Shown piece after piece: positions 20,205 through 63,800 of a stretch of 64,000 nucleotides of DNA (position 1 is its first letter; every line of letters starts with the position of its first letter). A program made the translations under genes and the position numbers. Source of the DNA: Ancylonema sp. (lineage: Eukaryota); NCBI GenBank assembly GCA_050230475.1, contig JBFLGF010000148.1:1-64000 (forward strand), read 5' to 3'. The notes below the pieces were generated by a model. The model was given only the letters and a program-made list of their open reading frames with translations. It was not told the DNA's origin and did no database searches.

Positions 20205-20448
<244 letters not shown>

Positions 20449-25700: not shown

Positions 25701-25859
25701 GGTGCAAGGGAGGCTGCCGGCAAGAAAGTAGCCTGGGATCCGGTGACGGAGGAGCCGATCAGATATGAAGAGTCCGGACCACTCTTGTCCGAGTCTGCTT
25801 CCAAAATGGGAGAGCGACTGGCCACGCAGCCAACTCCTTCCATCTCTACTGATCCGAGC

Positions 25860-26423: not shown

Positions 26424-26430
26424 CCCTTTC

Positions 26431-39100: not shown

Positions 39101-39758
39101 TTCATGGAGAGTTCCGATCGGCTCGGCTTCCGAACGGCTGCATTTTTCGATAGAATCCCCTAGCAACGTTTTTTATGCCAGGGAAGACCAACACTGTTTT
39201 TTATATGTTATGCAATGGGTCTGCCATGATTTGGCAATGACTTGGGTACTCCTTTTGATGTCTGCACTATGCCAACTTTAGCATGCATCCGAGGGGGTGT
39301 GTTAGAATATTTTTGGATAGCCAATATGTTATGCTGCTAGTCCAGTTGTGAACCGGTTACTCTAACCGGGAGCATCTTCTAGATGTGCCTGTATGCGGGG
39401 CCGGGCAAGTTTGTGCCCGGGCACCTGACATGTTTCCGACGCTTAGAGAAGAAGACGTTATTTGTTGTTTGAAGCGTCGTGATTGGCTTGTTTAGTCGTG
39501 GTGTCAGAAATGTCCGTCCGGCATGTGCCGTTGTCATGTAGAAGAGCTGTCCGTCAATGATAGGCCGTCGGTCAATTGTGCCGACCGTCGGCACACAACA
39601 ATCTGTAAAGCGCATCGGGTATTACCATCCCCGATGCAATCACAATTTCGTTCCACACACGCAACTCCTGTCTCGTTTTGATCATCAGTGATTTTTGCGT
39701 ACGGTTCGTTTTGTCGCCCACCTAATTTCCGGCACGTCTAATCACTCAAAAGCTTATA
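33146..39758 (+). mobile_element. Ty1/copia LTR retrotransposon, copy 1 (LTRs 33146-33586 and 39300-39758; TSD CTGCC)
   Basis: PBS GGTTATGGGCCCA at 33587-33599. Gag, PR, IN (DLIGPL, RTDKGGEY, EQNGICERLNRTL), RT (RYKVRLVAQGF, QMDVITAFLHG, IHVDD) and RH (GYCDASW). PPT GAGGGGGTG. CTGCC at 33141-33145 and 39759-39763. Many frameshifts. Confidence 0.95.
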
Positions 39759-40659
39759 CTGCCGGTTGGCGGGACGTACTTCACTCGGGGAAATTGGTTG
39801 AGTGGAATACGCCTCTCGTTTGCGCGCAGCAGTTGTAGTGGGTTATATGGCCTTCGAGGTGTCCATGGTATCACCCCCAGTGGAGGTAGGGGCGATTGAA
39901 GCAGGAGAAGGTGCAAGATTGATGGATGTTGAGGGTGCGGAGCTGGTAGGTGAGGAAACGGGAATCGCTGTTGACTGTTCTCCTCGCAACACATTTTTGC
40001 CGATTTCCATCTATAGCCTTTGTTCCAGACGAGCAGCTTCTTGGCGAACTTCCAAGAGCTGCGTTGCGTGAAGTTTGACCAGGTCCCGCATCTTGTCTTC
40101 CAATTTGGAATGCAGGTTGTCCACTAGAAGATCATACTCTTGGATCCATTTGCTCTTTTCTTCCTCCCGAGCTGTGGCGATGTCGACTTTTGCTTGCACA
40201 TCCTTGCAGATAAGCACCGATTCTTGTTCCTTGATGAGTTGTGCGATTCTTCGTGTAATCGTTGCCTCTGCCTCAGTTTTGGCCATTTTGAATACGACTG
40301 CCTAGAAACGTTTCTGTAGCGTGATCATAGTGTGGTAACGGTCTCGCAATACGTCCTCCGTGAGCTCGTGTAGCTCATCTGATTCGAAGGTGTCAGGTCG
40401 AGAAAGCTCGAGAAAGCTCGAGAAAGGTCGAGACAGCTCGAGAAAGGTCTGTATCAAAAGGAATGGTTGAAATGAACTGAGTGTCAGGTAGAGAAGGTTG
40501 AGGTGATGTAGGATTGGTTGGAATGTCTGAGGATGGAATGGTTGATGTATCTAATTCCATAAGAGTAGGAGTTTCTTTAAATCCAGTAGCGCGAAAGAAT
40601 GTCTGACACACACTATTGCGAGATGAGATGACTTGATTGAAATCTATAAACTTTGCTTG

Positions 40660-41583
40660 TTAAAGTGCTTCACGAATGCACTTGCGTTTGATTTTCTCCT
40701 CGATTTCAGCATACAGTCGTTTGCGTACTACTGATTGGTGAGGTGTATCCGAAATTTCTTGTAGTTCCCCATAGTCCGTTGTGAACTCAGGCAAAGGGTC
40801 AATGCGTTTGGAGCCAGGTGTAGGTGGATAGTTATCCTCATAATCACCTGCTGCCACTTTGACCGGTGATAAGGTAGGCAAGACGGCCTCCTCTGGTTGG
40901 GAGCCGAATTGAATGGAACGGCGTGGGCTGACACGTACAGATTCACTGTCTTTGGCAGATTGGTCTGCTTTGGCCTTCTTCTCCTTCTGGTGGAGAGGTG
41001 CAGCAAGATCCCCAGGTATGAGGGTCAAAGATGGTGAAGCACTGTTTGTCATATACACTTCCAATTTTTTGGATTGATGTCGGACTGTGAGTGGTAATGA
41101 TGCTAGGCATAACCCACCCCTTTCCCAATCTTCCCTATAAAAGAATAGATGTTGCCAAGGGTCAGAGTATCCACCAATTTGTCCAATAATTTCATTGCCC
41201 AGTAAGACGTCAAATTCTCTGGATGGAGACATGTGGAGTTCCATATAAATGGTGGTTGGATTGGGTGTGCCTCTGCCAGTGGTAATCGGAAATTTTTCCT
41301 TGGTTGAACCGAGACTGATTTCTTGAGCACCAGATGCGGTGATGTATGGTGTCCCAGGTTTCAACATGTTTGGTGTGATTCCAAGTTTGGATGCCATGAT
41401 TCTGCCAATCATGGTTTTGATGGCACCACTGTCTACTACCACCTTGTTTGGTTTCTCATTCATGATTGTGAACACCCCACGGTTGTTGCGAAGGAGTGCA
41501 ACATATTTGGTGTCTTGAGAGTTGCGTGGTGAGGAAGTGGTGAAATCCTGACTGGTGGTGTATTGGGCTGCAGGTTCTTGCAT
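40660..41583 (-). CDS. Retropepsin-like aspartic protease ORF of family 1 element
   Basis: KVVVDSGAIKTMIG and FDVLLGNEII motifs in an open 307-aa frame. Confidence 0.8.
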   Translation of the reverse strand: MQEPAAQYTTSQDFTTSSPRNSQDTKYVALLRNNRGVFTIMNEKPNKVVVDSGAIKTMIGRIMASKLGITPNMLKPGTPYITASGAQEISLGSTKEKFPITTGRGTPNPTTIYMELHMSPSREFDVLLGNEIIGQIGGYSDPWQHLFFYREDWERGGLCLASLPLTVRHQSKKLEVYMTNSASPSLTLIPGDLAAPLHQKEKKAKADQSAKDSESVRVSPRRSIQFGSQPEEAVLPTLSPVKVAAGDYEDNYPPTPGSKRIDPLPEFTTDYGELQEISDTPHQSVVRKRLYAEIEEKIKRKCIREAL

Positions 41584-44500
41584 GGAGTTGACAAGTGCAG
41601 CCGCGTTGTCTCGTGCCTTTTTGGCGATCTACAACAGTTGTGCACGCAAAACATTGACATGGTCATGAAGCATGTCATAAAGAGCTTGTGCATGTGGTAG
41701 AGGTATGGGTGGGGGGGCAGCAGTATCATGGAACTGGTTCATGTATGTAGTGCGAGCTTCCAAAATGTTAGGAAATTTAGGTACAAATGATTCTGGCATT
41801 TTTGTACTGTATCCCTGTCTGCGACCGTAATCCTCCCCCTCTCTTGTTCGTTGTTCAAGAAATGTCTCTGGATGGGGCTCCGGGTATGGAAGTGGTAGAA
41901 CTACTTGGTTTAGGATCAGATTGATAATGAATTGGGGTAGTTTCAGGCAAGGGTGGTACTTGTGTTTCATTCACAGGTGTATCAACAGGTGGAGTGTGAT
42001 AATATCTAGTGGATTCCGATGGTGAGACTGCATCAGAGCTGAGGAGAGTGACCACAAGAACATGAAATTGAGTTTGTTTCTGAATGATCGCTTGTTTCTT
42101 CTTCTCTTTTGCAGCCACCCGTGGTGAACGTCTGGTTGACATTAGGTATTGACATGGAATGGTATGGTCAATTACCTCAGAGTCCGTTGTCTGGAGTGCG
42201 ACATGTTGTCGAATTCGCGTTGGCGTGCCAAGTCGTCTACTTGCATAGCCAAGTAACTTGTCTATGTCTCAGGAGTCTTCCACCCGATTTGTTTGGGTTG
42301 AGTATCTGCACTGGGTGGTGTACTGAGAGTTAGTAAGTTTTGTGCCTTGGCAAGTTTATGACATTGGTCTCGGGTGTGGTGTTTCCCTTTTGCAGTATTC
42401 AGCAGTATTCACAAAATGCATTAGCGGTGTACTGTTTTGCATCAAACTGGCGAGGTCGTGGTTTGAAAGATTGTCTATTTTCAGTACCGTACGCACTTCT
42501 CCCCTTACTAGCTCAGCACCGTCCAACTCCCCAAGTACCGCACCCTCATCTGTCACCAGCTCCCTAGTACCAACAAGTGCTGACCAGATGGATACTTCAG
42601 AGGTTACCAAGCCTGCTATTGCGACTGCTCGCAAACGAGATGCTCATCCAACCATCCCCATCTCTCCAAGTGACAAGCGCCCAACCAACAGGCAGCGCAT
42701 GCATACCGCATCCCCATTTGTGAAACCACACAAAGTGGAGGAAACCCTTATGGACGCCAGACGCTCTATCCTCGTCCCAACCACCACCTCTAGTCGACCC
42801 GGGGCAAGCCATCGTCACCGCAATGGAGCTCGAGTCTCTGCAGCATAAAACACTCAATTGCTACGAACATCTGCGCGATCCCCGTGATAAAACCGACATC
42901 GCCCAACGTCTGGCACGCACAAACACTAGTGTGTTAGACTTCACTTTCCGTCAACCATTCCAACGTCCTGCCATGGCACACTCGGTAAACATTGGTGCCA
43001 GTCCCCACTTCTACCCTCGGTAAGACAAAAAACGGTTGGCGGCTTCCATCTACGTACCTCCAGTCTTCTGCGATGTTTTCCACCAGCTAGAGTTACGTGG
43101 CTAGGAGCGTCTTTGCACAACTCATTTGAAGATGCAACACGACCACTAGTCGCAAACCACTACAGTCACCTGGACAGGGCAGACCTTTCAAAGAGATCAT
43201 ACTTTGCCTCGGACGATCATCACCACCCATTTCGATTCTTAATTCATGGGCCTGCACGTCTACCTACCATTTGGCGGCCTGGACGTGCTCGAAATCGTCC
43301 TCACAGCCGGTTTCAAAGTCGCCCACGTTACCCCGCAAACAGACTGCATCTACACCAAAAACAAGTGGCAACTATCACACGGAGGTAAAGCAGACATACA
43401 ACCCCCTCGCACGGAGATTTCGACAATCGCCTGCATCCACTCCTTGCTGTCATCAAATGGATCCACCGTAGTGCCAAGGTCAAGAACTACTACCTAGTGT
43501 AGTACTTCTTCACCCACATCGGCACATCCGAGTACCCTCCTTGGGTCCACGATCTCTACCACTTGGCGCGCGCCCTCCTCGGCAATGCCGCTTAGCTGCA
43601 ACCTCTTCGCTTCCAAAGCCATGTTCATCGACCCACCAAGGTCTGGACAAACTGCATCACACCTCGGAAGCTGGAGCTGTGGCAACCAAATAATATCACC
43701 CGTCAACCACTCTCCGACATCTTGGAACCGTGCCACATAGCTCAATTGCTCACCATTCCTGATATGATCACTCCTACACTCAACCGCCTGGACAACCGTC
43801 TGGCAGTCTTTCCAACCAGGAGCCTTACTTGTGATTAGCATAGTATTCCATTTGCTCGGATGGTCGACTAGGCAACGGCATGTTGTTCGACAGACCTTTG
43901 CTGCGGTATGTACCACTCTCACCTTTCGAGATTGAGCGAGCACTCGGACGACCCATCGGCCACACGGCGCATGCACGCATCCCCAAACCGTTGCGCGCAT
44001 CACACTTGGCCCACATGATGGATGATCGCCTCATCACTTTCCAGGCGGAAATACCCAAGGCCAACCGGACATAGGAATCACCCCTCAACTCGGAACAAAG
44101 GTACTACCCAACCTCAACTCTGGGGGGGAGAGAAACTAGATCCTCTGGTCAGCAAATTTCAACTAATCCTGCGAAACCACGCAAAAAAAACAAAACCAAC
44201 TCCAAAGTCAACACTCAACCTGGAGTCACGGGCCCACATACCCAAGTCCACACCCAACCAACCGAAAGTCGACGAACCAAATTACGACCTAACCACTCAT
44301 CGAAACCCGGTCCACGACCACGGAACCAAATTCTACCAACCCGACCAGTCATTCCAAAGTTAAGGCTTCACAACCCAACGGTCAAACCACCACTTTCTGG
44401 TCCGCACCATTCTAGTCCACGACTTTATCCTCGTTTACGGCCACACCGAGCACCTTAGTCTACACACAAACTTACCACTCGGGACATAACTTGGATGTAA

Positions 44501-46456
44501 ACTAAACCCAGTAGACCATCCAACCCTACCTCTCATGTTCCATCATACCAAACACGCAAAAAAAAAATACAAACAACATGTGGATTTTTCGTGAGTTTCT
44601 CACCAATTCTAGTATCGACCACCACCACCACCCACAGTACCACCTGTACGGCTTCATTTTTCCCTTTCAGCATATTCAACATCTATTTCTACCATTTCGG
44701 ATACACTCAGTATACGAGACAGCCTACCAGAGCTTCTTGAAATACCATCTTCACCCGATTATGACCACACTATCTTTCACTATGTCGACGACCACACTTT
44801 CCCTATTTAGGCAACCATTATACCTGGACCTGAACCTCATCCTCACTTACTTCTGGCATTAACAGCTGCACGGTTACGCACTCAGACCCGTGCTACTTTA
44901 CTAGATAACTCCACCACACACCTCAACACTACCTCACCACCACGGCGTTTTTTTTCCTTCTTACACCAACTAGTCTGCTGCTATTTCCTAGCTCCTACAC
45001 AAGCGTTCCACAGCAGGGGGGGGGGAGAGAGAGTAGCTGGACCACCAATACCACCACAGACCCTTCGACCACCTCACATCGTCATCAATACTGGCGCAAT
45101 CAACATCATCGCCAGGCCGCCCAGGGCATTACCACATGCATCATCATGAGAAATATATGTACCAAATTGTCAAGTACAACATCTTGGGCGGCCGACTCTA
45201 AACCGCACGCCACCTGTCATGACGCTAGAGATCGCTAAGGAGACAACCCCTCTGAATTTATCAGAAACTCCTCTATATTAATACTCCTCTACAACGAGAG
45301 TATTCGATACAACGATATATATAATTAGTACTTTGCAAGAAAAATAGTGAGAACGATTTTGTACAACTCGAAAATAGCGCGTGGCGTATTTTCCGAAGTC
45401 TAGAATCCAACAGTTTCAACAAATGGCTGCGTGTCGATTTATGTAAAATTAAAAAGTTACTTTCGACTTGTCGATGATCCCGGCGATAAATCCAGCCGTA
45501 GAATTAAAGGTAATATCTCGCGCCATTTCATGGTAGCGTCGAGATTGATTTGAAAGTTCCAAAAGCCAGCCTGTCGTAATCTTCGATATACTATTTTACT
45601 TAATTGTGCCGGTTAGCACCGCGTAACAACTTTGATGAAAGACAATTTTACTTTCTGATATGCCAGGTTCCGCTGTCAAATTGCGCTATTAAGAAAGTCC
45701 CCAACAATTCTTGTGAATTCTAAATCCTGCAATTTTGTGTATTTGCATCCCTTCGCTTACGCGACTTCGCATCGTGCTTGAATCTCTCTCAGCTTGACTT
45801 CCGTCACCCATACTATGAGTTGTCCAAATTGTCATTTGCAACTTGTTGTTTCATGCCTGTAGGAATCGTCAGCTAGAAACCCCTCTGTTTTAATCAGAAT
45901 ATTAAAATAGCCGCACCGCTATGTTTTTCCGCCATGCCACGACTCCGCCCCCGCTCATTTCATTCCGAGCTTCGTCGGTGACCGGCGCCCTGTTATTAAC
46001 TTTCGAGTAGGCAATCTTTGACTAGCTCCACTTTGTATTTGAATTGATTGGACCACGTGTCAGACTTGTCACCAAAATCAATCGTGACCGTAGCTCTTTA
46101 GATCAACAACTCAGAATCAATTAGAGATGCCTGCACCCAATTATAGCGTGTGCGCCGAGTTGATTTAGATATTCCTTGCCACGCGTATCCCAACGAGCGC
46201 GCGAGTAGAATATTCGAGTTTGACAATAAAGACTCCAGTACAACTTTCAAATCTCAGCTTTCGCTGAATTTGACGCTGAAGAGATTTTCCTGCACACCAT
46301 TATTTTCCTCGACACTCTGAATTCTTTGCCTGGCGCAATTTGTGATCTTTTGCTTTCGCAACATCGTGTGTATCGAGCGTTCGCTCATTTGTGATTACTT
46401 TGCATCAAGCTGTCGCTTTGCAATTTGTGAATTACCATCGTTACCTAAGTTATCGA

Positions 46457-47789
46457 TGACGTGCTTTTTGGAGTCGGCCGCCCGGAATGATGTTCTTCAT
46501 ACTATGTCACTTTTGTTCCCGGATGATTCTCGGAAGGATGCATGTGGTGGTGTAACGATGATGTCAACTGGATTGGTATCGATGATGTTCGTAGGTGGTC
46601 GAAGGGTCTCTGGTGGACTTGGTGGTCCGGCTGCTTTCACTAAGTGGTATTGTAGATTGAGTCTCTGTTGAGATATCAATATTATATCTATCACGCGTCT
46701 CACCGATCTGGTGATATTCACTACTTAACGCCAAAGGCGAGCTAACAGATGGTTTATAGTACAAAAGTCTGTGAAAATACTATAAAGCAAACAAGATGGT
46801 CTTGTGCAGACTATCAAGGTTAACAGCCGTAAGAGTTACTTTCGGTGCGAAAGCGAAGTATCGACGGCGCGTCGATAAAAGATGCTGGCTCAGAAAGAGC
46901 GTCAGCAGACAGGTGTAAACAACAAATGCTGGCTCGGAGCGAGCGACAACAAACACACACACACAAATGAAATTGCCGGTTCGGAGCGAACACGCAGGCA
47001 AATCGACAGATTCTTTACACACACACGCACGCTTGCTGGCTCGAGAGAGCGTCAACGATCGATGTAAAAAATTACAGTCAATATTAGAGCTGGCTCATAA
47101 AGAGCGTCAGCAACAGATTCAAATGACTCTGATTACACACACACACAGAGATTGCAAATAATTATTTGCAAACTTACCGTCTGGCTGACGGATGTCAGGC
47201 TGAGACGAAAGACGAGCACGTTGCGAAGTTGCGTAAGCAAAGGGATGCAATATTCATAGAATTGCAAGGATTCAGATGAAACATAAGATTGTAGGAAGAG
47301 ATTTCTTAACAGCACAATCTGACAGCGGAAGTTGGCAAATATGAAAGTACAAATGGTCTTTTATCAAAAATTTGTTGCGCGGTGCTAACGGGCATAGTTA
47401 ACTAGAGTTAAGCTATCGAAGATAACGACAGGCTGGCTTGTATATTATTACAATTAATATCGGCGCTACGATGAAAACGGCGCGAGATATTCCTCCAGTT
47501 TTGCGGCTGGATTTAATCGCCGGGATTATCGACAAGTCGAAAGGGACGTGTGATGTTAACAAAATCGACACGAAGCTATTTGTTGAAGACTGCTAGATTC
47601 TAGAGTTCGGAAAATACGCCACGCGCTATTTTCAAGTCGTACAATTTCGTGCTTCACTATTTTTCTTGTAAAGTACTAGTTCTATAAAATCGTTATAACG
47701 AACACTCTCGTTATAGCAGAGTATTAATCTAGAGGGGTTTCTGAACAATCTAGTGGGGTTTCGCCTTAGCGATCTCTAGCGTCACGATA
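46457..47789 (-). mobile_element. Solo A+B unit of family 1 with 4-bp TSD TCGA
   Basis: TGACGTG...GTCACGATA flanked by TCGA (46453-46456, 47790-47793). The empty site AGTTATCGATGGTCTGAC is visible in the A2 copy at ~62351-62368. Confidence 0.9.
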
Positions 47790-49708
47790 TCGATTGTCTG
47801 ACATGCTGCGCAGTCATAAATCACATGTTTGATTTACCGAGCGTTCGCTAATCCGTGCAATCCATTTGCACATCTCTTTTGCTGCTATTGACAAGCTTTG
47901 CAGTACTGTATCATAATCGATTGCTTGCTGATCAAGAATCGACGCATTTGTTGTTGTAATTTTGTGTCGCTCTCGTTACTTTTAAGCCGTCAAGTAAAAG
48001 GAGCGTGTGATAGCTTGCTAGCAGTGAGCAGTACAGCGAATAAATATCGAAAATTGCCTCGTTTGTGTGATTGTTTACAATCACTGCCGCGATTCAAGCG
48101 AGCACCGTACTCTCAAATTTAGCGAAAGGGTCTCTGACCACCAACTACGTGACTTCGACGGCTTTTCGTTCAAGAAAGGTACGTGAAAAGTGCATGTTTT
48201 TTTCCCCTACCTCTTTGCGTTGGCATAGAATCATATATGTGCATCGAGGAGTAGCTCGAATTGATATTTGTACGATTTGCGTAGTTTATATGTGAAATTG
48301 CTGCGAAATTTGCGTGTTGAATTATCATCGTGAAAGTTATTTCGTGAAATTGTGAAATTCCTATCATCTCTGTCATCTAGATTCTTGCAATCTTTGCTTT
48401 GGCTACCGTTCGTTACCGGTTGTTACTGGATTTACCGCTTTGTGACTAAGAGAACCACGAATGTACTTCATAGAGTTAGTTCCAGAATCTGGATCACGCA
48501 GTACCGAGTCTGTCACGCCAGTAAGGGAGAGACAATTTCTTGCAAGATCGTTTTGCTTTTTTTGTGACTCTTTACAAATACGAGAAGAAGAATTACCCAT
48601 ACCCTGCCCAAAATTTTACCAGGCGACCTTGTAACGGAGTGACGTGTGCACTTGTGCATTACTCTGGTTGTGTCGATAATTAAGTTAATTATCGATTGCG
48701 CCTATAAGTAGAGTTGCTTATAGAGAGGGACGCCGGCCTCGGGCCTGCGCCCCGCCTAAGTATTATTAATACTTGGCGCAATGTTGCGCCAATTAATACT
48801 TGTTTAATATTAGATATTACCGTCCCCGCGTGGAGCCGGTAACTGTCTATTATTTCGACGGGTCCTTTGACGGGTCAAAATCCCCGTCCGTTCGTACGGA
48901 TTCAGCCGTACATGACGCACAACCGTCGTTTGCGGAATTCCATCCCGCATCGACAGAGCTCGTAGAGCTCTTCCAGTGGCCTCGGCGAACCGCTGTCAGC
49001 TGAGGTGCGATTCACCCTCAGCTCAACATGAGCTTGTGCACGATTCGATCGTGAGCTCCGCCTTCAAACATACACGCCGCAGCCTGCAGAGTACTCAACA
49101 CTCAATTCACTGATTGAACAAGCTCTAGCTGGTGCAGACCGCGGACACAGCGTGTCGATTACGTTCGAGTCGTATGTGTTTTTTATTCGCTAATAACGTT
49201 ATTTATATTTCCCTGTGGCGATACATTACAGACCTCACGGTCCTCCCAGACCCGATTCGAATTCACTTGACCGAGCTCAATTCATTGGACATCACAGTTC
49301 TTACCACTCGTTTTACAGACAGTTCTACAAATATATTATTGTCTCGTATTGTTTACTCTCAAATTCGGAATATTGACACCGTAAGTAATTTTCTGGACCG
49401 ATACCGTACTCTCAAATACCGTGAATATTATACAAATTGACAGTATATCGTCAAGTTTTTGTTTTCCTTTACTGTCTACACCACTACAAGGTGCTTCCAC
49501 CGACATTCTTTTGCTGCTAAACGCACTAAGAACTGCTCACCCGGAACAATTGCACGCTTGAGAAGTATCGACAGCCACTCCTTAACCGGATATATACGTT
49601 AAAAAATAAACAAAACTTAAAAAAAAACCACCGTACACAACTATTATTATCCAAGAATTATCACAATTTGCGACCAAGTAATATATACACCGTGAATTCT
49701 ATAAGTTT

Positions 49709-52700
49709 ATGCCGTGGAAACGTATTAACGGAAGACTAACGAAAATTTCCGATTTAGAGGATTTACAAACGGGACTCACAGTAGCCATCCCTCCTGGAAC
49801 GTTTACTTTAACTTTACCAAACGTTTTGTTCGACAACAGTGATTATGAAAAAGATAGTGTAAGGTTAACCAGACAGTTGTCTCAACCTAATAACTACAAA
49901 AGTTCACCTCGAAAGACAGAACGAGAATTACCAACCGAAAAATCAACACCAGACAATACAACTCCAGTACAAAGAAATCAAAACAGTGCACCACCGACTG
50001 TATTTGATTCTCATGATTATCGACACAACAACTATCCATCTATAATATTATTTGGATCAGCACCTATTACTAGGGCAACTAGCCCATCCTTAGGATCGAC
50101 TTCAGATAATCCTAAAAGTCTAGACCTAGCTCCAAACCGAGAAGTACCTACACCAATCCAACCACCGACTCCACCATCACCTACACAACCGTCACAACCA
50201 CCGCCAACACCACCGCAAGCTGTACAGACATATCACAGACAGAATATAAATTGGGGAGATAATATTACATCCTTACCGCCAATCACACCGTATCACGGAG
50301 CATTGGGCACTACTCAAGACGAATTTATTAACTCAGTACTAAGTCATCACGAAATCCTTAAACGGCGGGAAAAACGGACTGGCTATATAGAGATGGATTT
50401 AGTTCGAAACCTAGGGGCTTATTGTAAAGGAGAAGCTCAACGAGAATCAAAGTTTTATGACAGACCATGAAGGAGACGCCAACACAAGAGATTTACGCGA
50501 AATGTGGCGTGCTTATTCTATCGATAAATTTTACTACCGATTTCATGGAAGAGGCGATGGTATGAGTGAACTACAGCCACCGAGTCAACCAGAACCACAC
50601 GAATTACAAGCATTTATAGATGCAATTAAAACGAGATTCCGTACCTCATCTGCAGAATATTTGATCAAACTGGACAATATGGTTTGTTCACCAACGGATA
50701 CAGTCTCATCAATTTACGCCAAGTTTAATGATGCAGCTTCACTGATTGAAGGTTCAAATGCAATGACTTCCGAACAGCTTGCACTTCGTTTACTTCAATT
50801 GATTCCTTTACCGATCCAATATCATATTAAGAAATGGTATTTTGACACCAACAAGCAACGGTTCTTTGCAAATCCACGAGAAGCACCATTAACAAGGAAA
50901 GAGATCATGACAGAAGCCAATGAAAGTGAATTATACATGGCAAAACAAGAACTTGCATGAGAGCTGCGGGTGGAACAAAAAAATCATCCAACTCTTATGC
51001 GCCGAAATCGACAAATTTTTACCAAAAGGCTTATACACCAAGTACTCCAACGTACAGACAATCGGATCGACAAAACGACTGATCTCAAGAGACACCTACA
51101 GATCGACAAAATACCAATGGCGAACGACCACCTATAACATGTTACAATTGTTAGAATATTTTGGATAGCCATATGTTATGCGTGCTAGTCCAGTTGTAAC
51201 CGGTTATACTCTAACCGGGAGCAATATTCTAGATGTGCCTGTATGCGTGGCCGGGCAAGTTTGTGCCCGGGCACCTGACAGGTTTCCGACGCTTAGAGAC
51301 GTTATTCGGTTGAAGCGTCGTGACTGGCTAGTTTAGTCGTGTCAGAAATGTCCGGCATGTGCCGTTGACATGTAGAAGCTGTCAGTCAATGATAGGCCGA
51401 CGGTCAATTGTGCCGACCGTCGGCAGACAACAATCTGTAAAGCGCATCGGGTATTACCATTCCCGATGCAATCACAATAATAATTCGTTCCACACACGCA
51501 ACTCCTGTCTCGTTGTGATCATCAGTAAGAGATCCTTTTGGTACGGTTCGTTTTGTCGCCCACCTAATTATTCCGGCACGTCTTCACTCAAAAGCTTATA
51601 GGTTATGGGCCCACGTGCGGTCTAGTTCAGACCCGTGTAGGTTAAAAACTAAAGGCTCCACGCGATTTCGCTGCGGTAATCTCTGTGAACGGTATATTCT
51701 GCGAGCGCAAATATATTCGTGGTTGTTAAGGTCTGCACGTAATTCTGTTGACATTGCGCTGCAAGCTTTCGAGCTAGTGCTGCAGGCAGGAATTGCACTG
51801 AGAACTCGAGCTGAGCGAGAAATTTTGTAAAATCCTACACAATAGCTGCCACAATGACGGATAGGTCGCAAATCCCTCAGTTTACTGGAGCTGATTATAC
51901 AGGATGGGCCCTTCAAGGTCAAGTATGGGCTGGCGGACGACAAGAAACTGCATCGTTTGGTGATGGATTGGGACAACTTCTTGCCGCGAAAGTGTCGCCC
52001 AGACGTTATCCTTCCATGACACCACACCTGACAACGCAATTTGCCGCCAGGGGGATCGACGTGGATGTCGAAATATTGGTCAGACAGCAGCAGATTTCCC
52101 AGCAGCTGCTGCAGCTGGAGAAATGGGATGAAGACAATCTGGCTGCTATGTCGTACATTGTGAAGCACCTAGGTCCTTCGGAGCTGACGCACGTCACGGA
52201 CTGCACGACAGGTGCCGGAATGTGGGATGCTCTGAGGACATTCTACCAGGTGCAGGGAGCGATCGAGATCGCAAATACGGAAGCACTGCTGAGCGCGATC
52301 ATTCAGACAGAGGCGGAGGACCTCAACGTGTACGTCAAGCGTCTGCAGTAGCTGCATCAGGATCTAAAAAATCTGGGGGCGCCATCTCCGACGAAGCAGG
52401 CGATCAACCTGCTGAACTCGTTAAACACGCATTACAGCCCAATGGTCTCAACGCTGATGCCATGGTCCGAGTCGTCGCCACACCTCTTCAATTCCCCCAC
52501 ATCGTGAGTGCGCTGCTGCGAGACGACGTGCGGAAGGAGCTGAAGGACCGTAAAAGGGGGGCGCTGCCTGGAGGTCACCAAGCGCATTATGGTGGACCTA
52601 GGGGGGGGAATGGAGCTGGAGGTAGCAGCAGATCTGGTGGTGCGACTGGAGCTGGTCGCAGAGACGCTGCAGGCGTCGAATGCTTCGACTGCCACAAATT

Positions 52701-55700
52701 CGGGCACATCAGAGCGAATTGCCCTTCACCAGCTCCTGGCGGAGGCCATGCGGGAGCTTGGAAATGTCATAGGTGCCACCAGGCAGGGCCCACCGAGCTG
52801 CTCAGTGCCCTGCGACATCGCCAGCAGCTGGAAATGTTGCGCACGCTACTCAGGGAAGTTCAGGGGGGAGGCAGAAGTGCAGATATTCAACATTATAGGG
52901 CACACAATTGAACATTGTAGAAAAAGAACATCTGACATGGCTCTAATGAACCCAGAAGCTGCTAGGAGGGCTGATGCACAAGCTAGACTTGCTCGCTTTG
53001 CTGACAAACCCTTCAACGCCAATGTGGATTATTTAGCATTCGGTGCTTTCTCGTTCGATGTTGCTCGGGCATTGTCTACTGGTTCTCACACAGACTCCCT
53101 GATCTTCTGGATTCAGGTGCTACCGACCACATTTTCACGGCACGTGAACATTTTGTGGAGTACACACCTACCCTGAGCACGCAGAAGGCCTACATCACCA
53201 CTGCTGACGGCTCGTCACACAAGGTGGAGGGCACTGGCTTCGTGCACATCCGAGTGAGGAATGGCGACGCTTTTTTTGTGCAGCCACTCAGCTCGATCCA
53301 CGTCCCAACCTTTGCCTGCACCCTCGTGTCGACATCGTGCCTCGTCAGAAGAGGTGGGGGCTGAGCTTTCTACTACTACAGCTGCCTGCCCGCCGGGGTC
53401 CTGAATTAACAAGGGAAATGTGAAATGGGCTGATGTGCTGCAGCAGCCTAGTGGTCTGACCTTGCTGCCACAATATCGTCAATTGCCTGGATCTCATGAT
53501 ACGAGAGCAAATTTGTCCACAGGCATGGTCTGGCATCACAAACTGGGTCACCCCAGTTCTGATGGGATGTCAGATTTTGTCAAACGTGGTGACATCCCAG
53601 AGTTAAGTCAGGGAGAATTAACTGAAGTAAGGGGATGTCAGGTTTGTTGTCAGGGGCAGATGATTCAGCTCAGTCATGCTAAGGTCAGTGAGGATCTGGG
53701 GACATGCCCCAAGATGGGTCGCATTCACCTGGATCTCATTGGACCATTGTCTGTTGCTAACGGAGGATTCACATATGCTCAGACAGGGATTGAGGTATCC
53801 ACACGTCTGTCATTTGTCAGTTTGCTAAAAACAAAGGATGAAGCACTGAACCGAGCAAAAGTCACTATACAATTGCTCGAGGTCCAGTCAGGGTTGCCAC
53901 TGCAGTCTATACGGAGAGACAAGGGTGGGGAGTATGTTTCTCAGGAGTGGATAAACTACTGTGGGGGGAAGGGTATTGACAAGCAAACCATAGAAGCATA
54001 TAGTCCTGAACAAAACGGAATCTGTGAAAGACTGAATAGAACATTGACCGAAAAAATGCGAATGCATATTAATCTGGTCAGGTCTACCGAAGTGTATTGG
54101 GATGTGGCATTATTACATGCAAACTGGTTACGGAACAGAACTCCCACTAAGTCGCTTGCTGCAGAATTCCAATTGAGTCTGGGAGGGAAAAACATGAAAA
54201 TGAACAAAAGTCAAATTTTGGGTGTCTGGTTCAATACTTGAAGGTTGGGGGGGAAAAGAACAGTCAAGGGGACAAGTTTGCCCCTCGCACTTGCTTTGGT
54301 GTGTTTTGGGGATGGCTGCGGGGAGTGCAGGCTACAACGTCTTCGACCCCCATAGGGTGGGGGTGATATCACGGCATGGACGTGGCGGTTTCTTCGAGGA
54401 GGTGCCCAGGGTACCCGAAGCTCTCATGGGGGGGAGAGCTCCCCAGGGTTTAGGAGGCAGCAGAAAAACACTTTTTCTACCTTTTCCCCGACCCTCAAGA
54501 TGAACCAGCTGCAGCAGTTGTGCCAGCAGCAGCAGTCCACCCCAACATGCCCAGCAGCAGCAGTCCACCCCAACCATACCAGCACCAGCAGTTATGCAAC
54601 CGATGCCAGCAGTTCTGCAGCCAATCCCAGCACCAGCAGAAGCAGCAGTCCCTGAGCCAGCAGCTGCCATCGACTATCCGCACGACAACTTCTAGCCACA
54701 AGCTGCCGAGGTCCCTAACGCCACGATTGTGCTGTCTGACAGCCAGTCAGGGATCAACAACGCAGGAGGTGGAGATGCAGGGGAGGAGGAGGTGTGCAAA
54801 GGGGGTGCGAACCCAGGAGTGGGGGAGCCAGGCAGCGTAGCTGATCGGGTGATGGCTAGAAGGCGAGCCAACTTTGCCGAGTATGGGGATCTCATGTGAT
54901 GTGATGGGGAGGAGTTCGATGACGCAGCTTACGCCAACTACTCAGCGACTGAGTGGGAGCCCAGCCAGTTTCTACACTGGCTTCAACGGTCCTGTGGATC
55001 CGGGCTACGCATGCGTAGCATCTAAAGCAACTCCTCCGAGCCACTCACCTAACCATGCGATGAGAGGCCAGACTGGGACCGTGGGACAGGAGCCCATTGT
55101 GGAAGAGCTCGCTGCCCTGGAGCGTTCAACACCTTTGAGGTGTGTGTACTTCCTCCAAGTAAAAGGTTGTGGGGTGCAGATATGTTTTTAAGGTCAAAAC
55201 AACACCACAGGGGGATATTGAAAGATATAAAGTCAGACTGGTCGCACAGGGATTCTTACAGCAAGAGGGTATTGACTATAACGAAGTTTGCACCAGTAAT
55301 CGACAGTACATCTATCACACTACTCCTCTCTATAGCCAACCAATATGACTGGGAACTAGAACAGATGGACGTAATCACAGCGTTCCTGCATGGACGTCTG
55401 GAAGAAGAAGTTTACATGAAAATACCACCACGGATGCATATCAATGGGGGTGCTGAGGGAAAGGTCTTACGACTGAAGAAGGGAGTATACGGTCTAAATC
55501 AGAGTAGCCACGTGTGGCAAGAGATGTTCAGAAAATTTATGATATCTGAAGGGTTTACACAATGCGTAATGGACACATGTATATATATGAGGGGGGAAGC
55601 AGACAGCAGAATCATACTGGGCATACATGTAGATGATCAGGTGATCACAGGTCCTAACGCAATGGTCGTCAAAACTTTTAAAGAAGATATGGGTAAAAAG

Positions 55701-58281
55701 TTCAAAGTCAAGGATCTGGGTCCCCTAACCCATATCCTGGGGGTGGAAGTGAAGAGGGATAGACAGAGAAGACTGCTCACACTGGGACAGTCAGGATTCT
55801 TAAGGGGAGTGCTTGAACGCTATGGGATGCATGAGTGTAATCCAACCAAACTCCCCCTCGCCCCTGGAACTCAATTTACACAAAATGATGAACCAACTCT
55901 TTCCCCTACCCCTGAAGAAATAACAGACTTTCGAGGGAAAGTGGGATCTCTCATATATGCCATGAAACAAACCAGACTGGACATCGGGTATGCACTTGGG
56001 GTACTGGCTAAACACATGGGAAATCCTGGGGTCGCACACATAAGGGCGTTACATCAACTATTCAGATACCTTAAAGGGAGTGTGAACCACGGACTGACGT
56101 TTGTGGGTAAGGACATATTTGAAGTAAAGGGTTACTGCGATGCATCATGGAACAGTTGCAGCATGACAGGCAAGTCAGTCACAGGATGGGTAACCACGGT
56201 TGGGGGGACAGCACTGAGTTGGAAGTCGCAGAAGCAGTCCATTGTTGCACAGAGCACTGCTGAGGCTGAATATATCGCTGCCTGTAGTGTGTCTAAAGAA
56301 TGCTGTTATCTAAAGTCTCTCTTGAAAGAACTCAAGTTCCCAAACCAAATCACAATCCACACTGACTCAAGCTCAGCTCTCTCCATGATCCAGAATCCTG
56401 TGCAACGACAGAAAGCAAAAACACTTTAATGTGGTATATCACTGGGTACGGGAATGCCACAGCACGGGGAGACTCTAAAATATGTGTATCTTGCAGGCGC
56501 CAATCAACACACCCGAGCAGATATGCTAACACCCTAAAGCTCTACCCCAAGTTTTACTGGACAGACACAGCAAAAGTCTAGGTTTTGGACGGTTATACTG
56601 AACTGGGGGTGTCAGTTAGTTTTCTTTTATTTTTATGATCGAAGGTTTCGAATGCCATGCATGTTGGCAGGGGGTGTGTTGTTATGTTTCTTTTCAGGCA
56701 GAAGTAATGGGGAGGTACACCAACTTCAGCTCATCCAGCTAAGTCACATTTTCACCTAATACCTTGAAAAGACACTTGAAAACGTTTAAGGACACTTTAA
56801 AATCAGAAAGTGTGAATCTGCTCAACTTTAAACTTGTCAGTTGTTCTGAATTTCCGAATGTATGTTCTAATCATTGTTGCAAAACTTGTGTCAAAAGTTG
56901 GTGCTGATAGGACTGGTAATTTTGAAGTTATGCTGTTTTGAGATTTTTCTGACTAGAAAGTGTAAAGTTTCAGAATCGTGAAGTTGAAAAAGTTAAGAAA
57001 TCAAAAATATTTTCATAAGTTTTTTGTTTTTCGCCTAGCTTGTGGTATTTGTTTGTATGTTCAGGGCTTCGGGCCCGAAAAACGACTAAGGATCTGGAGC
57101 GATCTCTTCTGGAGTTCCGATCGGCTTCCGATTCGTCTAGCGTCGTCTTCCGAACGGCTGCAGTTATTGATAGAACCCCTAGCACGCTTGTATGCTAGGG
57201 AAGACCGAAACTGTTTTATATGTTATGCAATGGCCATGATTTGGCAATGACTGGGGTACTCCTTTTGATGTCTGCATCTATGCCAACTTTAGCATGGCAT
57301 CCGAGGGGGTGTGAGAATATTTTGGATAGCCATTATGCGTGCTAGTCCAGTTGTGACCGGTTAATCTAACCGGGAGCAATATTCTAGATGTGCCTGTATG
57401 CGGGGCCGGGCAAGTTTGTGCCCGGGCACCTGACATGTTTCCGACGCTTAGAGACGTTATTTGTTTGAAGCGTCGTGATTGGCTTGTTTAGTCGTGTCAG
57501 AAATTTCCGGCATGTGCCGTTGACATGTAGAAGAGCTGTCAGTCAATGATAGGCCGACGGTCATTGTCCGACCGTCGGCACACAACAATCTGTAAAGCAC
57601 ATCGGGTATTACCATCCCCGATGCAATCACAATAATAATCGTTCCACACCGCAACTCCTCTCTCGTTGATCATCGTGATAGAATCCTTTTGCGTACGGTT
57701 CGTTTTGTCGCCCACCTAATTATTCCGGCACGTCTAATCACTCAAAAGCTTATAACAATTGCAACCAAGTCGGACACTACAAGAAATACTCCAATTTACC
57801 AATGAAATTTGCAGCACCTACCGGACCTACGCAACCTTATCGACCTTCAAATTAACAATCTACCGGTCAAAAACCTCAAGGAAATTACAAAGGAGATTCT
57901 TATGGACAACAACGCATGAATCAAGTTCCTAAACCTCGACAGTTCGGACCAAAAGCTTACACGAAAGGAGCAACATACACTAATTATGGCAAGATGAACC
58001 ACATAGCTCCACAATGCCAACGACCACGCAACGGTCAACACTTGACGTCACCCGTCCCTCCAATCTCATTGGATCTACCGGCAGTACCAGAAGTACAACG
58101 CATCACTTGGAAGGACCAGCAACAACCTGATCCAAGCCTCACATTCATGGAAAAAGAACCTGCAAATGACATCGATCCAATGCAAGAGTCTAGTGTCGAT
58201 GACCTCGCCGACATAACCTATTTGCAATTCCTTAAGAAGTTCAAATCCTTCAAAAATTATGGCAGGAAGCGGTTAAGGTAG
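49709..58281 (+). pseudogene. gag of family 2, split by copia copy 2 inside the first zinc knuckle
   Basis: Removing the copia and one TSD restores ITCYNCNQVGHYKKYS. A second decayed knuckle reads TYTNYGKMNHIAPQC. Frameshifts are present. Confidence 0.75.
51149..57754 (+). mobile_element. Ty1/copia LTR retrotransposon, copy 2 (LTRs 51149-51600 and ~57312-57754; TSD ACAAT)
   Basis: Same family as copy 1. PBS GGTTATGGGCCCA at 51601-51613; IN ORF 53420-54241; RT-RH ORF 55140-56429. ACAAT at 51144-51148 and 57755-57759. Confidence 0.95.
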
Positions 58282-58899
58282 ACATACCACAACAAAATAC
58301 GCTTACCCCAAGAAAATCCCCAAGAGTTGCGCAATTTGAACTTCGTCGGCAAACTTCGAGTTTACCAGAATCCTCTACTTCACTACCTAGACCAACGTTG
58401 ACATCACTTCCACCTGAACGCGAAACTCAAGCATAAGAAGAAGCAACAATTACCAATCATCCTGTTACTCGCAATGATGTATACCCACCAGAACATGAAG
58501 ACACAGGACGTTTTTATGTAGAAAGACCAGACTATGGAAGAAGACGTGGATATAGCGTTGAAATGCCGGAAACATGGATTCCTGAATTCTTTGATAATAT
58601 CACACCAGGCACGGTTAACTTGGATGACCCAACGTTCACTGACCCGCCACCACCATTACCCCTTCCTCAGGCACATGCGGTTACCGATAAACTTATCATG
58701 ATGCAAATCGAGCTCCAAAAACTCGTCATCAACCAGAGTAAGGCCATAGCCATGGCATACGACCTCGTCCACAAGCGAGAGAACCCCTCTCCTCAGCTGT
58801 CGGCAATCCTCAAGGCTACGAAGGAAATCCCGATGGAAAACACCTACAAGCCTCCACACGCAATAAAGAAAAGTGAGCTCACCATGGATACTTATCAAA

Positions 58900-59340
58900 T
58901 CACAACGATTGATAATAACACCGGAATTTGCCACATGAATGGAAAAATACCAACGAAACCTGTCATTGATTCGGGAGCACAAAATACTATGATTGGTATT
59001 AATTACCGAAAGACTCTCAACATTACCGATGACGATTTACGACCTGGTTCGCAATACACTACGGCATGAGGCGACATTCAAACGAGCATGGGCAGCACAA
59101 AATAAAAAATTCCCATTATCTTGGGAGCGGGCACACCAAATCCAACAACGGTGTGGACAGAGTTGCACCTTTCCCCATCCAAAGATTTCGATTTACTTAT
59201 GGGCACTCTTTTCATCGCCACACTCGGAGGATGCATCGAATCCCGAGAAAATAAGTTATTCTACCGAGCCGATTGGGCTCATGGCGGACATTGCCTCACA
59301 AGCGTTCCCATTACCGTCCAAGGACCTCCCAAGGTAATTC
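58900..59340 (+). pseudogene. Aspartic protease of family 2 (one in-frame stop)
   Basis: KPVIDSGAQNTMIG, GAGTPNPTTVWTELHLSPSKDFDLLMG; homologous to 40660-41583. Confidence 0.8.
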
Positions 59341-59826: not shown

Positions 59827-60843
59827 GGCCTTCAAGTATGGTTACCATTCGCAGGTATCGACCTTTTTGGACTCATCATGCTACTCGAAGGATGATTCCG
59901 CATCTCTACCCTTACCACTCAAGAAGAAGACCCGGAGGCACGTATGTCACAACGTCGCCAAGTGAAAGACATTCAAACACTCTTCCCATACCAATTACCT
60001 AACTTTATGTTACATGGCTTTGATACAAGATTACCAAACTCATTGGTGAATACAACGAGTACCAATCTCTCCAACATGATAATGACTCACGGACCAATCG
60101 ACTTCATGTGCGGCAATTGGCACACCGAGGCGATCCGTAATCAGACACCCGTTACCACAATTAAAGATCCTCGAGTGGCAGCCCTGTTTACACTACTAGC
60201 ACTCGTTCAACAACTTCAGAAGATGCAGCCATTCATACCGACATACATGTTTTACAACCATACCAAACCAACTGATTACCCTCAGTGGTCTAAGGAACTC
60301 GTACATGCAGTATCAAAATTTCTTGGAGAAATGATAACAGTCAATGCTTTACAACTTGGTTCCCACTCTTACCGACAAACACATATCTGGCAGAATACAT
60401 TTCCTAATGGACATCTTCGAGCAGCTGTTCCCAACGATAGATGGATTTCAAAAATCGAACGGTTGCTCAACCCTAGACATCAAGAACATGACAAAGGCGC
60501 CAACAAATATAAGTATCAGAGCAACTATTACCAATCCCTTGACGAGAAACAATTCATGCCACCAATTACCCCTTACCAAGCCACCCCAGACTATGTTTTA
60601 CGATGGCGACCACATTTATGCCAGTACACATACGGCGAAGGGATGTTGAAAGACAACACCAACAACCATTGGGTGTCACCAACACCTGACGAGCGTGCGA
60701 GATTTTTACATTACAGCTTGGATGATATATCCATGCCTGCCCACCCGGATACCAATTACCTCAAAAAAGGCAACTGCCAACTCCTTGGAAGAATGATGGA
60801 CACTAAAATTTGTGCTTGGTATGGCGGTCTACTTGGTGCATTT
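59827..60843 (+). pseudogene. C5-cytosine-methyltransferase-fold domain lacking catalytic residues (family 2)
   Basis: GLQVWLPFAGI, GPIDFMCGNWHTE (60091-60129), LVQQLQKMQP..PTYMFYN, NALQLGSHSYRQTHIWQN, PTPDERARFLHY and LLGRMMD. One stop at 59893. Confidence 0.72.
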
Positions 60844-63800
60844 CATCAACAATCCCAGAATCTGGGGGGTAGCGTCACTACAACACCAACAATTCCCCAG
60901 CCAGAGCCGATTCCATCTACATCCAACACCCCTCTCTCGGACTTTGAGTTTGAAACATCCGACACCAGTTCTGACAACGATTACCCTTTCTCCTTCCCCG
61001 TACATGTGGACTATATGGAAGAAGATATCAATACAACTCCACTTGGTTCGAGCTCTACAGTTTCTTCATCCACAACAGCCGCGACCATCCCAAAAAACAA
61101 AGACAACAAGACATTACTAGACTTACCCTAGAGTCTCCCGATTGACTTCAAAGATCCCAATCCTCAACACAATGTGCAAATGATACATTACTAGGATGAA
61201 CCAGTGATACATTTATGCCCACAACAAGTTACCAAGACTCACAAAAATGAACATACCATAAAAAAAGAACATGTTTTAGACCCTGTCAAGACAACATGCG
61301 ATGACACATACTTGTTTATCGATGGCATTTATGGTTTTGCAAAACACAAGTTACCTTTGATATCGGAATCTGAATCCAAAATATTTTTACTTCCATTTAC
61401 ATCTGCTACAATATCTGCATACCCTGATGCTGTGATGACTACACCTTCAACAATATCGACAACTTGTCATTTTTTAGCTTCAGAAAGCAATCGTTGTGCT
61501 ACATCCTTACATGCTACAATTTGTGATTGTGATCCTAATCACTTTACCCTCTTCTATTGATTAACCACATGTGAACGCATAGCTCTTCAATTTGGGGGGG
61601 GGGAGTTACGATATTCCAGCCCCCTATCCCCACTTCCACTACATCGACAAGACCCCCTTCTGTCGATACATTAAGTGCGATTACCCCTTCATCGACTGAT
61701 TCCATCATCGATGACCCATTTACCCTACCGATCTCATCTAGCACGTCACCTGTCATGCCTGTATGAATCGTCAGCTAGAAACCCCTTTGTTTTAATCAGA
61801 ATATTAAAATAGCCGCACCGCTATATTTTTCCGCCATGCCACGACTCCGCCCCCGCTCATTTCATTCCGAGCTTCGTCGGTGACCGGCGCCCTGTTATTA
61901 ACTTTCGAGTAGGCAATCTTTGACTAGCTCCACTTTGTATTTGAATTGATTGGACCACGTGTCAGACTTGTCACCAAAATCAATCGTGACCGTAGCTCTT
62001 TAGATCAACAACTCAGAATCAATTAGAGATGCCTGCACCCAATTATAGCGTGTGCGCCGAGTTGATTTAGATATTCCTTGCCACGCGTATCCCAGCGAGC
62101 GCGCGAGTAGAATATTCGAGTTTGACAATAAAGACTCTTGTAAAACTTTCAATTCTCAGCTTTCGCTGCGCTGAATTTGTCGCTGAAGAGATTTTCCTTG
62201 CGCACCATTGTTTTCCTCGACACTCTCAATTCGTTGCCTTGCGCAATCTGATTTGCTTTCGCAACATCGTGTGTATCAAGCGTTCGCTCATTTGTGATTA
62301 CTTTGCATCAAGCTGTCGCTTTGTGATTTGTGAATTACCATTGTTACCGAAGTTATCGATGGTCTGACCTGTTGCGCAGTCAGAAATCACTTGTTTGAAT
62401 TACCGAGCGTTCGCTCTCCGTGCAATCCATTCGCACATCTATTTTGCTGCTATTGACAAGTTTTGCATATCTGTATCATAATCGATTGCTTGCTGATCAA
62501 GAATTGACGCATCTGTTGCTGGAATCTTGTGTCGCTCTCGTTACTTTGAAGCCGTCAAGTAAGAGCAGAGTGTGATAGCATGCTAGCAGTGAGTAGTACA
62601 ACGAATAAAGCTCGAAAACTGCCTCGTTTGTGTGATGGTTTACAATCACTGCCGCGCTTCAAGCGAGCACCGTACTCTCACTTACGATATTCCAGCCCCC
62701 TATTTGCACTTCCACTACATCGACAAGACCCCTTTCTGTCGATACTTTGAGTGCGATTACCCCTTCATCGACTGATTCCATCATCGATGACCCATTTACC
62801 CTACCGATCTCATCTGGCACGTCATGTGTGTGTGTGTGTGTGTTTGTTTAATTCAATATGAATCTGTTGGTGACGCTCTTTCTGAGCCAGCCGTATAATC
62901 GATTGCAATTTCTTGCGTCGATTCGCTGACGCTCTCTCCGAGCCAGGAAGCGTGTGTGTGTATGTGAAATCTGTCAATTTGCTGACGTTCGCTCCGAACC
63001 AGCACTGTAGTTGTTTCATTGTTGTGTATGCTCTTGCTCGCACCGAGCCAACAATTGTTGTTTACATTTGTCTGCTGACGCTCTTACTAAGCCATTATCG
63101 TTTATTTATACGCCACCAATACTTTGCTTTCGCACCGAAAGTAACTCTTACGTTTGTTGACCCTAGTAGTCTGCACCAGACTATTCTGTTTGTGCTAAAG
63201 TATTTTCCACGACTTTAGTACTGTAGTACATTTGTCAGCTTGCCCTCAGCGTTAAGTAGTGAATTTCACCAGACCGCTGAGACGTGTGATAGATATAATA
63301 TTGATATCTTAGCAGAGACTCAATGTGCGATACTACTTAGTGAGAGCAGCTCGACCACCAATACCATCAGAGACCCTTCGACCACCTCAGACCATCATCG
63401 ATACAAGCGCAGTCAACATCATCGCCAGATCGCCAAGGGCATTACCTCATGCATCATTGTGAGAAACATTTGTACCAAATTGTTGAGTACAACATCCTAG
63501 GCGGCCGAATCCAAACCGCACGTCAGATTTGGGGCAGCCTATTGTTACATGTGCGGTGCCCAAGTTGGCGTCCGGGCCGAAGCGGCGCCACATTTTGCGA
63601 CCCCTTTGGTTCCCCTGTAGCACTTGCTCTCTTAAGGTGTATATACACTTCATTGTACTCCTCTTTCTGGGAACATTTCCCCTTACACTTTTGACTTTCG
63701 GCCGTGTACATGTCGTTCTCAACCTTTGCATAACGATTTCAATTGAGTGGTAGGAATGTCTTTTAATCTATCGCACGTGTGTTTTTCATAGCGTGCGTGA

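Follow-up and report, generated by a model that had tools for sequence, protein, structure and literature searches.

Why retrotransposons keep DNA methyltransferases is an open question, and one that becomes directly testable where such a domain has been kept in an altered form. The window considered here (the whole stretch of DNA that was analysed, 64,000 nucleotides from Ancylonema sp.) holds three copies of a domain in which the residues needed for methylation are replaced by others. An earlier note had assigned these copies to two strongly diverged families with the motif order of C5 DNA methyltransferases (C5-MTases), and this proved right: the motifs lie where the note had placed them, and the domains of families A and B are 26% identical (91/346 residues, E 3e-37). 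The copies and their motifs are as follows.

59827–60843, plus strand: pseudo-DNMT3 domain of family A (copy A), with a stop at 59893
31580–32563, minus strand: pseudo-DNMT3 domain of family B (copy B), with one internal stop
43248–44074, plus strand: pseudo-DNMT3 domain of family B (copy B′), with a deletion and frameshifts
Copy A, plus strand, motif starts: PFAG 59845, GNWHTE 60112, YNH 60253, RQT 60373, GRMMD 60787
Copy B, minus strand, motif starts: PFGN 32545, GNYHTE 32284, YTH 32143, RPT 32023, GHMMD 31642
Copy B′, plus strand, motifs: PFGG in the frame starting at 43249, GNYHTE 43367, then FTH and RPT downstream

All three window copies are broken. The domain of copy A, besides its stop, lies in a frame that differs from that of its protease; copy B′ lacks around 50 codons upstream of GNYHTE, is spread over several frames, and is 55–69% identical to copy B across four pieces.

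Homology and Fold of the Domain

The domain is almost certainly a full-length DNMT3-like C5-MTase fold that comes from a Gypsy-borne DNMT3 lineage. Searched directly against Pfam and against PDB sequences, the window proteins matched nothing, and PF00145 in particular was absent from the results for both proteins (0 families at E up to 10), so the link to PF00145 goes via relatives. Word-index homology searches (near or longer lengths) gave no match, scans of metagenome and viral contigs found no relatives, and a motif-pattern scan of the metagenome and viral contigs gave one match each, both of which were unrelated by profile. In the ESM Atlas, all 30 of the 30 matches to copy A were clusters bearing PF00145 (the top one at 0.96, with 191 features shared and only 14% of its members carrying PF00145); the result for copy B was weaker, with PF00145 in 5 of 30 and no common Pfam family in the top 12.

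With copy A as the query, phmmer found 50 matches at E up to 0.001 among 1.84 billion representatives. The domain is present in 49 of these matches, and PF00145 in at least 34; P0012, a protein with SEA repeats, was a spurious match and was dropped. The best full-length relative of copy A is P0005 (E 6e-22, 26% identity). A 36-row profile of relatives has DNMT3B and DNMT3A as its best solved structures (E 4e-20). A profile made from the 34 active-type rows only, which had themselves been found with copy A as the query, aligns to almost the full domain in both copies, with 166 bits for copy A and 110 bits for copy B, and the likeness is therefore not due to chance. This 34-row set and the trees described below omit rows of less than 150 residues and the near-duplicates P0053, P0054, P0058, and P0060; the pseudo-type fragments and P0050 were kept despite this rule.

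An AlphaFold2 model of copy A from the 36-row alignment, which includes active relatives, is confident (pLDDT 80.5, pTM 0.82). The comparison with C5-MTase folds proposed in the earlier note was made on this model: Foldseek ranks DNMT3B first (E 1.3e-12), and VIA-align superposes the model on DNMT3B with Z 24.2 and an rmsd of 3.2 over 275 residues, as against far lower values for DNMT3L (Z 8.6, rmsd 3.6, 167 residues aligned). C5-MTase motifs I to X are present in order in the profile, in the model, and in the structure comparison. In a control for alignment bias, copy B was folded from the pseudo-type rows alone, which gave a pLDDT of 35; the fold assignment consequently rests on homology, which is firm.

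A Rebuilt Active Site

In DNMT3A, the catalytic residues are given as Cys710, Glu756, and Arg792 in the relevant part of PMC10034213, and their equivalents in the window copies were found by profile alignment to DNMT3A and DNMT3B, with residues mapped by motif. The earlier note had read motif IV as GNWHTE or GNYHTE, motif VI as YNH, YTH, or FTH, and the second Arg of motif VIII as Thr, and all of these readings are seen. Its reference for motif IV, GxPCQ, needs correction: in most of the closest relatives the motif is G[GS]W[EQP]CQ (with EN[VT] and AHR[LV]R at motifs VI and VIII), so the Trp of motif IV is inherited.

60112–60135, plus strand: rebuilt motif IV of copy A, GNWHTEAIR, with N103, H105, T106 (the Cys position), E107, and R110
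60253–60306, plus strand: rebuilt motif VI (YNH) of copy A and, after it, a new conserved patch, YPxW...L.H
60373–60396, plus strand: motif VIII of copy A, RQTHIWQN, with the first Arg retained and Thr in place of the second

The Cys position of motif IV is occupied by Cys in 32/33 of the active-type rows and by Thr in 3/3 copies; the Glu position of motif VI is Glu in 33/34 of these rows and Tyr, Tyr, and Phe in A, B, and B′; and the second Arg of motif VIII is Arg in 31/33, where the window copies have R-x-T. The residues T, Y, and T, which A and B share at these three positions, are absent from all active-type rows. Further residues common to A and B are N103, H105, E107, R110, H151, Y157-P158-x-W160, H166, and M329, all rare in or absent from relatives. 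Where both differ from the consensus of their relatives, the replacement is the same one in A and B at 8 of the 10 such positions within motifs IV, VI, and VIII, but at 41 of 193 in the rest of the alignment (p 2e-4 by Fisher's test, for motif bounds that were set after the alignment was seen). These comparisons of sequence indicate that the active site was rebuilt rather than that it decayed. Since the C5 reaction needs the Cys, which is lost, standard methylation is very unlikely, and there is little doubt that normal C5 catalysis has gone.

The earlier note had also held that SAM-site-like segments persist. This is true of PF[AG][GN] and of the acidic residue after strand 2, which are kept in A and B, but not of the whole site: motif I has D, E, and D in the copies where relatives show G, C, or A (judged by eye, in a gapped column), and motif X has Met in place of the relatives' Ala, Cys, or Ser. 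With new residues in both motifs, SAM binding is not assured.

The substitutions that A and B share likely reflect one old loss kept in both families rather than repeated loss. In a tree from which the motif columns had been removed, A, B, and a third branch (P0008 and P0020) form one clade with support 96/94, which carries a long-branch warning; as a check on long-branch attraction, A alone and B alone were each placed beside P0050 (support 73 and 95), and a small tree holding both does not settle the join between A and B. P0008 and P0020 are fragments only, and their motif IV reads NWNQE, which keeps only the Asn and the Glu. Another sequence, P0038, reads ANLIEI, ANT, and YRQTHI (the last in common with family A) and is sister to P0030 (PHD, PCIF1_WW, DNMT) with support 100/99, which suggests a separate and independent catalytic loss.

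Selection on the Domain

Purifying selection acts on the domain in both families. The dN/dS calculation that the earlier note had proposed gives 0.17 for B against B′ (261 codons; dS 1.38, dN 0.24; bootstrap 95% 0.11–0.25), a value obtained by a counting method with dS near saturation; in family A, pN/pS per site is 0.18, with 25 synonymous and 15 non-synonymous changes among the 40 variants listed of 66. Both ratios are far below 1. The family A variants come from contigs aligned to 60090–60400, and the two runs that supplied them, X1 and X2, are one sample, which may be the source of the window. Were all 26 unlisted variants non-synonymous, the ratio would be 0.50 (p 0.005). Among the variants listed, those in the codons for Thr106, Asn150, and His151 are synonymous only. 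The proposal in the earlier note that the domain has been selected for a non-methylating role thus draws support from the fold match, the low dN/dS, and the shared new residues, taken together.

Structure of the Elements

The domain order in both families is gag–protease–domain, and their repeat plan is A–coding–B–A–B. Neither these split A–B–A–B repeats nor the lack of reverse transcriptase (RT), RNase H, and integrase in the A and B copies was part of the earlier description. Besides its domain, element A comprises the following features.

45849–48115, plus strand: 5′ repeat A1, identical to A2 at 875 of 923 positions (94.8%), with no B repeat before it
46457–47789, minus strand: solo A–B unit of family B that interrupts A1 of element A, with a duplication TCGA or TATCGA
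49682–58281, plus strand: gag region with two CCHC-like knuckles, broken and interrupted by a nested Copia (51149–57754)
58437–59340, plus strand: linker and aspartic protease, with stops (DSGA at 58968; PF13975 E 0.006)
60844–61603, plus strand: low-complexity tail (around 750 bases) and polypurine tract (61594–61603)
61604–62824, plus strand: 3′ block, made of B1 61604–61748, a CC spacer, A2 61751–62680, and B2 62681–62824

The gag label was given from position and from the knuckles, with no Pfam match. The protease of element A is identical at 67 of 138 residues to the protease region of family B and matches the protease of P0049 (E 9e-7). The features of family B, and of a third family to which we return below, are these.

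40660–41628, minus strand: protease ORF of copy B (PF13975 E 2.5e-6; E 5e-12 to P0049)
45016–45848, plus strand: polypurine tract, B1 (45026–45212), and first part of A2 of copy B′, into which element A is inserted
62825–63525, plus strand: remainder of A2 and B2 (63339–63525) of copy B′
23556–28904, plus strand: third split-repeat Gypsy family, with integrase–PHD (26434–27879), a gag knuckle, the junction ACGTCA-GC-TGTC, and a 4-bp target duplication ATAT

The earlier note had put the domain after the protease in all three copies. It follows directly in A, but in B it does so only across a nested Copia (33147–39758) and a linker of around 2.3 kb, and copy B′, which is 5′-truncated, has no protease. 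The family B linker (39759–40659 and 32621–33146, minus strand) is longer than that of A and contains a coiled-coil-looking stretch and a region conserved with copy B′; it has no informative Pfam match. The two families are nested in each other between 45026 and 63525, element A lying within A2 of copy B′, and the solo unit of family B within A1 of element A.

In element A, B1 and B2 are identical at 137 of 145 positions (94.5%), and the sequence ACGTCA-CC-TGTC marks the B/A junction at 61743. Contigs switch to varied flanks at this junction (33 + 31 contigs behind 61748 and 39 + 51 before 61751, with an agreement of 0.35–0.37), and since they break exactly there, the B/A junction must correspond to the ends of the element. 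A first reading of the repeats as a canonical two-LTR structure was rejected on account of these contig breaks and of the split-repeat junctions. The window has four junctions of the form ACG[TC]CA-NC-TGTC, spread over families A and B and the third family. Copy A is not alone in having the short 3′ end, since diverged contigs span its tail, tract, and B1 (61301–61669, with 63–67 differences), and in copies B and B′ the domain is likewise followed by a tail and then by repeat sequence. At 61438, nine contigs continue upstream into other sequence, which is perhaps that of a longer relative.

Missing Integrase and a Proposed Mode of Integration

The A and B copies in this window are without RT, RNase H, and integrase: a profile of the RT–RNase H of relatives had no match in the six frames of the window, and an integrase profile matched only the third family and the Copias, with none in the A or B copies. 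No helper with RT is seen in the 64 kb either, the copy of the third family at 23556–28904 itself having no RT. Members of A or B elsewhere in the genome may carry RT. The third family is a candidate donor of integrase, its own sharing 36–40% identity with those of relatives that bear a DNMT.

The split-repeat elements have TG...CA ends and 4-base duplications (ATAT, TCGA), which suggests that a DDE integrase was provided in trans; no clear duplication can be made out around element A itself, which is inserted in a TG repeat. Membership of the DIRS/Ngaro group was considered in view of the split direct repeats and rejected, since no tyrosine recombinase had a Pfam match in the 25 and 31 frames scanned and the ends and duplications fit a DDE integrase.

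The polypurine tract precedes B1, yet the TG...CA ends lie at B/A (61594–62824, 27981–28904, and 6896–8435), and at A2/B2 the end of A meets the start of B. One explanation that would account for both is a two-repeat circle: a linear BA–coding–BA cDNA would circularise and then be cut at the internal B/A site, giving A–coding–B–A–B. Foamy virus integrase reportedly cleaves 2-LTR circles. The repeat anatomy thus provides a testable model for the integration of these unusual A–B–A–B Gypsy elements.

What the Domain Might Do

The reading that we tentatively prefer, while holding it to be far from assured, is that the pseudo-DNMT3 is a particle-borne, non-methylating binder of the element's own cDNA. 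The element would be transcribed and translated into a Gag–protease–pseudoDNMT polyprotein, which might co-assemble with a helper family that has the common CA-NC-TG junction and that would provide RT and integrase. From its position after Gag and the protease, and from what is general in the biology of retroelements, the domain would be packaged and then cut free by the element's own protease, within the particle and beside the new cDNA. It could hold this cDNA via its retained target-recognition region and the rebuilt pocket, with no covalent Cys adduct, and the bound domain might either compete with active DNMT3 from the helper or the host or steer the integration complex, so that new copies would start less silenced. 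Non-catalytic binding of nucleic acid is favoured because conservation is highest at the old substrate pocket and because the DNA-binding half is kept, unlike in DNMT3L. The use of a captured epigenetic reader by a retrotransposon is described, in the account given by PMC6673714, for CopiaMBD. Against a binder, it may be that the bulky replacements do no more than fill the pocket. No marked excess of basic residues is seen in the target-recognition region (K+R against D+E is 16:14 in A and 10:10 in B, as in active relatives). In A, many positions of this region that the family conserves have changed, and model confidence there is low (pLDDT <50 at 231–246 and 257–262).

Another possibility, which we consider rather unlikely, is that the domain is a DNMT3L-like partner that binds an active DNMT3, whether from a helper Gypsy or the host, by a hydrophobic FF-type face and either stimulates or poisons it, the pocket then being a stabilising plug. 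Hydrophobic residues on the helices after motifs IV and VI are indeed kept in A and B, including a Phe before the invariant Gly173, and we take these to correspond to the FF face of DNMT3A, onto which they were mapped via the profile alignment. Moreover, the second of these helices opens with the new conserved patch (Y157-P158-x-W160, L164, and H166), which the 30–34 active-type rows lack. Inactive DNMT3L and DNMT3B3 do act as partners in the parts of PMC11555716 and PMC7608744 that deal with them, but known partners have shed the catalytic loop and the DNA-binding region, both of which this domain retains, with new residues fixed in its pocket; in addition, a helper of this kind would presuppose that the genome has a family with an active DNMT3.

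The fixation of new pocket residues also bears on a third reading, an improbable one, in which His105, Glu107, Arg110, Tyr149, His151, and Thr106 would form another catalytic or metal site that acts on a flipped base or on RNA. These replacements at the old catalytic positions are polar, are capable of catalysis, and have been fixed across 74% divergence; the restriction of Thr106, Asn150, and His151 to synonymous variants, among those listed, is in keeping with this, and a solved relative of the fold, 8yf3, is a carboxymethyltransferase (Z 17.9). The third branch, P0008 and P0020, nonetheless keeps only the Asn and Glu in its NWNQE. The HxE of the rebuilt motif IV resembles, as we take it, that of zinc deaminases, but the partner motif of the latter, PCxxC, is absent from the A and B translations. 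None of the tests run separates the binder, the partner, and the new chemistry from one another.

It seems quite improbable that the domain serves the particle as a structural part or an RNA chaperone, with no bearing on methylation. This role would suit the last folded domain of a Gag–protease polyprotein, and the sole one retained after the loss of RT and integrase, but it leaves the peak of conservation at the old active site unexplained. Neutral decay of a dead domain carried without function is scarcely credible, since the stops, frameshifts, or deletions in all three window copies, and the changes nearly private to copy A (6 of 8 non-synonymous), are what post-insertion decay of single copies would give, while dN/dS is 0.17 between lineages and 23 of 32 segregating family A variants are synonymous.

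Relation to Known Elements

The ancestry of the domain in Gypsy-borne DNMT3 is known; what is new is the rebuilt pocket kept in split-repeat elements without RT. The closest published case found is KnitGypsy-Dnmt3 of Klebsormidium nitens, for which the sections of de Mendoza et al. (2018, PMC5890265) concerned with it describe DIRS-like A–coding–B–A–B repeats, a DNMT3-like domain with conserved key residues, and a Pol ORF that holds this domain with RT and RNase H; the same sections report that activity could not be shown for the Gypsy enzyme. By this description, the Ancylonema elements resemble KnitGypsy-Dnmt3 in having a DNMT3-like domain in a Gypsy-type polyprotein, in their repeat plan, and in purifying selection (Ka/Ks <0.2 there, 0.17 here), but differ from it in the replacement of the Cys, Glu, and Arg and, in these copies, in the lack of RT, RNase H, and integrase. 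Only that paper and a preprint (bioRxiv 10.64898/2026.05.21.726589) were found on KnitGypsy or Gypsy-DNMT3, and a literature search that left most subscription papers out of reach found none on a dead retrotransposon DNMT of this kind.

Among the relatives, P0016, P0043, and P0051 are Ty3/Gypsy polyproteins of the order RT–RNase H–DNMT–integrase–PHD, and P0027 has the order DNMT–RT. P0049 and P0040 are like A and B in their order of gag knuckle, protease, and DNMT, in an ORF without RT. All six of these active-type proteins (known here from proteins alone, without their DNA context) differ from A and B in keeping W[EP]CQ, ENV, and AHRxR, and are 21–26% identical to copy A.

DNMT3L and DNMT3B3 are likewise catalytically dead members of DNMT3 with the fold retained. 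They are, however, host genes with ADD domains, in which deletions have removed SAM-site residues, the PC loop, or the DNA-binding region, DNMT3L having lost both its catalytic loop and its DNA-binding region in this way according to the pertinent part of PMC7608744. Unlike DNMT3L, the pseudo-DNMT3 is transposon-borne and full length, has changed by substitution, and has a protease rather than an ADD upstream. TR-GAG elements, as outlined in PMC6022998, are LTR elements with gag only or with gag and protease, and no RT; the A and B copies share this content but add a pseudo-enzyme domain under selection and have split repeats instead of two canonical LTRs. CopiaMBD, the DAM-LTRs, and the EpiLTRs are also retrotransposons with captured epigenetic readers or writers, but with other domains and in elements described with RT or integrase; for the DAM-LTRs and EpiLTRs this follows the portion of the preprint bioRxiv 10.64898/2026.05.21.726589 that presents them, where the DAM pocket is described as preserved.

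Selection on the fold after the loss of RT, integrase, and catalytic residues means that the domain has a value apart from the writing of methyl marks, and specialists would hardly expect a rebuilt pocket to outlast RT and integrase. It is conceivable, though on the doubtful side, that A and B represent a class of non-autonomous split-repeat retrotransposons in which the sole cargo beyond Gag and protease is a converted DNMT3. This would be either a reader or catalyst, with a pocket of His, Glu, Arg, Tyr, and Thr for flipped or modified bases, or a particle-delivered anti-methylation factor, and the elements would be mobilised by a helper integrase that cuts the internal CA-NC-TG site of a two-repeat circle. 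As the domain is invisible to Pfam, such elements would be filed as plain gag–protease derivatives. The domain is a small, defined protein, and its short list of residues lends itself to tests of DNA binding, DNMT3 inhibition, and new chemistry.

Other Sequences in the Window

The two Copias (33147–39758 and 51149–57754), which were recognised by an LTR pair and by their domains, are 91% identical, and each is nested in a pseudo-DNMT element; the LTRs of both seem to end in CTTATA, not in CA. More remnants of family B are present as a gag–protease fragment (9066–10602, minus strand) and as a polypurine tract–B–A–B block (5865–8435), and a piece of the A repeat of family B lies inside the third family (25860–26421). 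The host is represented by exons of an MBOAT acyltransferase (16575–17327), presumably similar to plant lysophospholipid acyltransferase, and of an AN1 zinc finger (1973–2728), and there is a long (AT)n run at 20186–20447.
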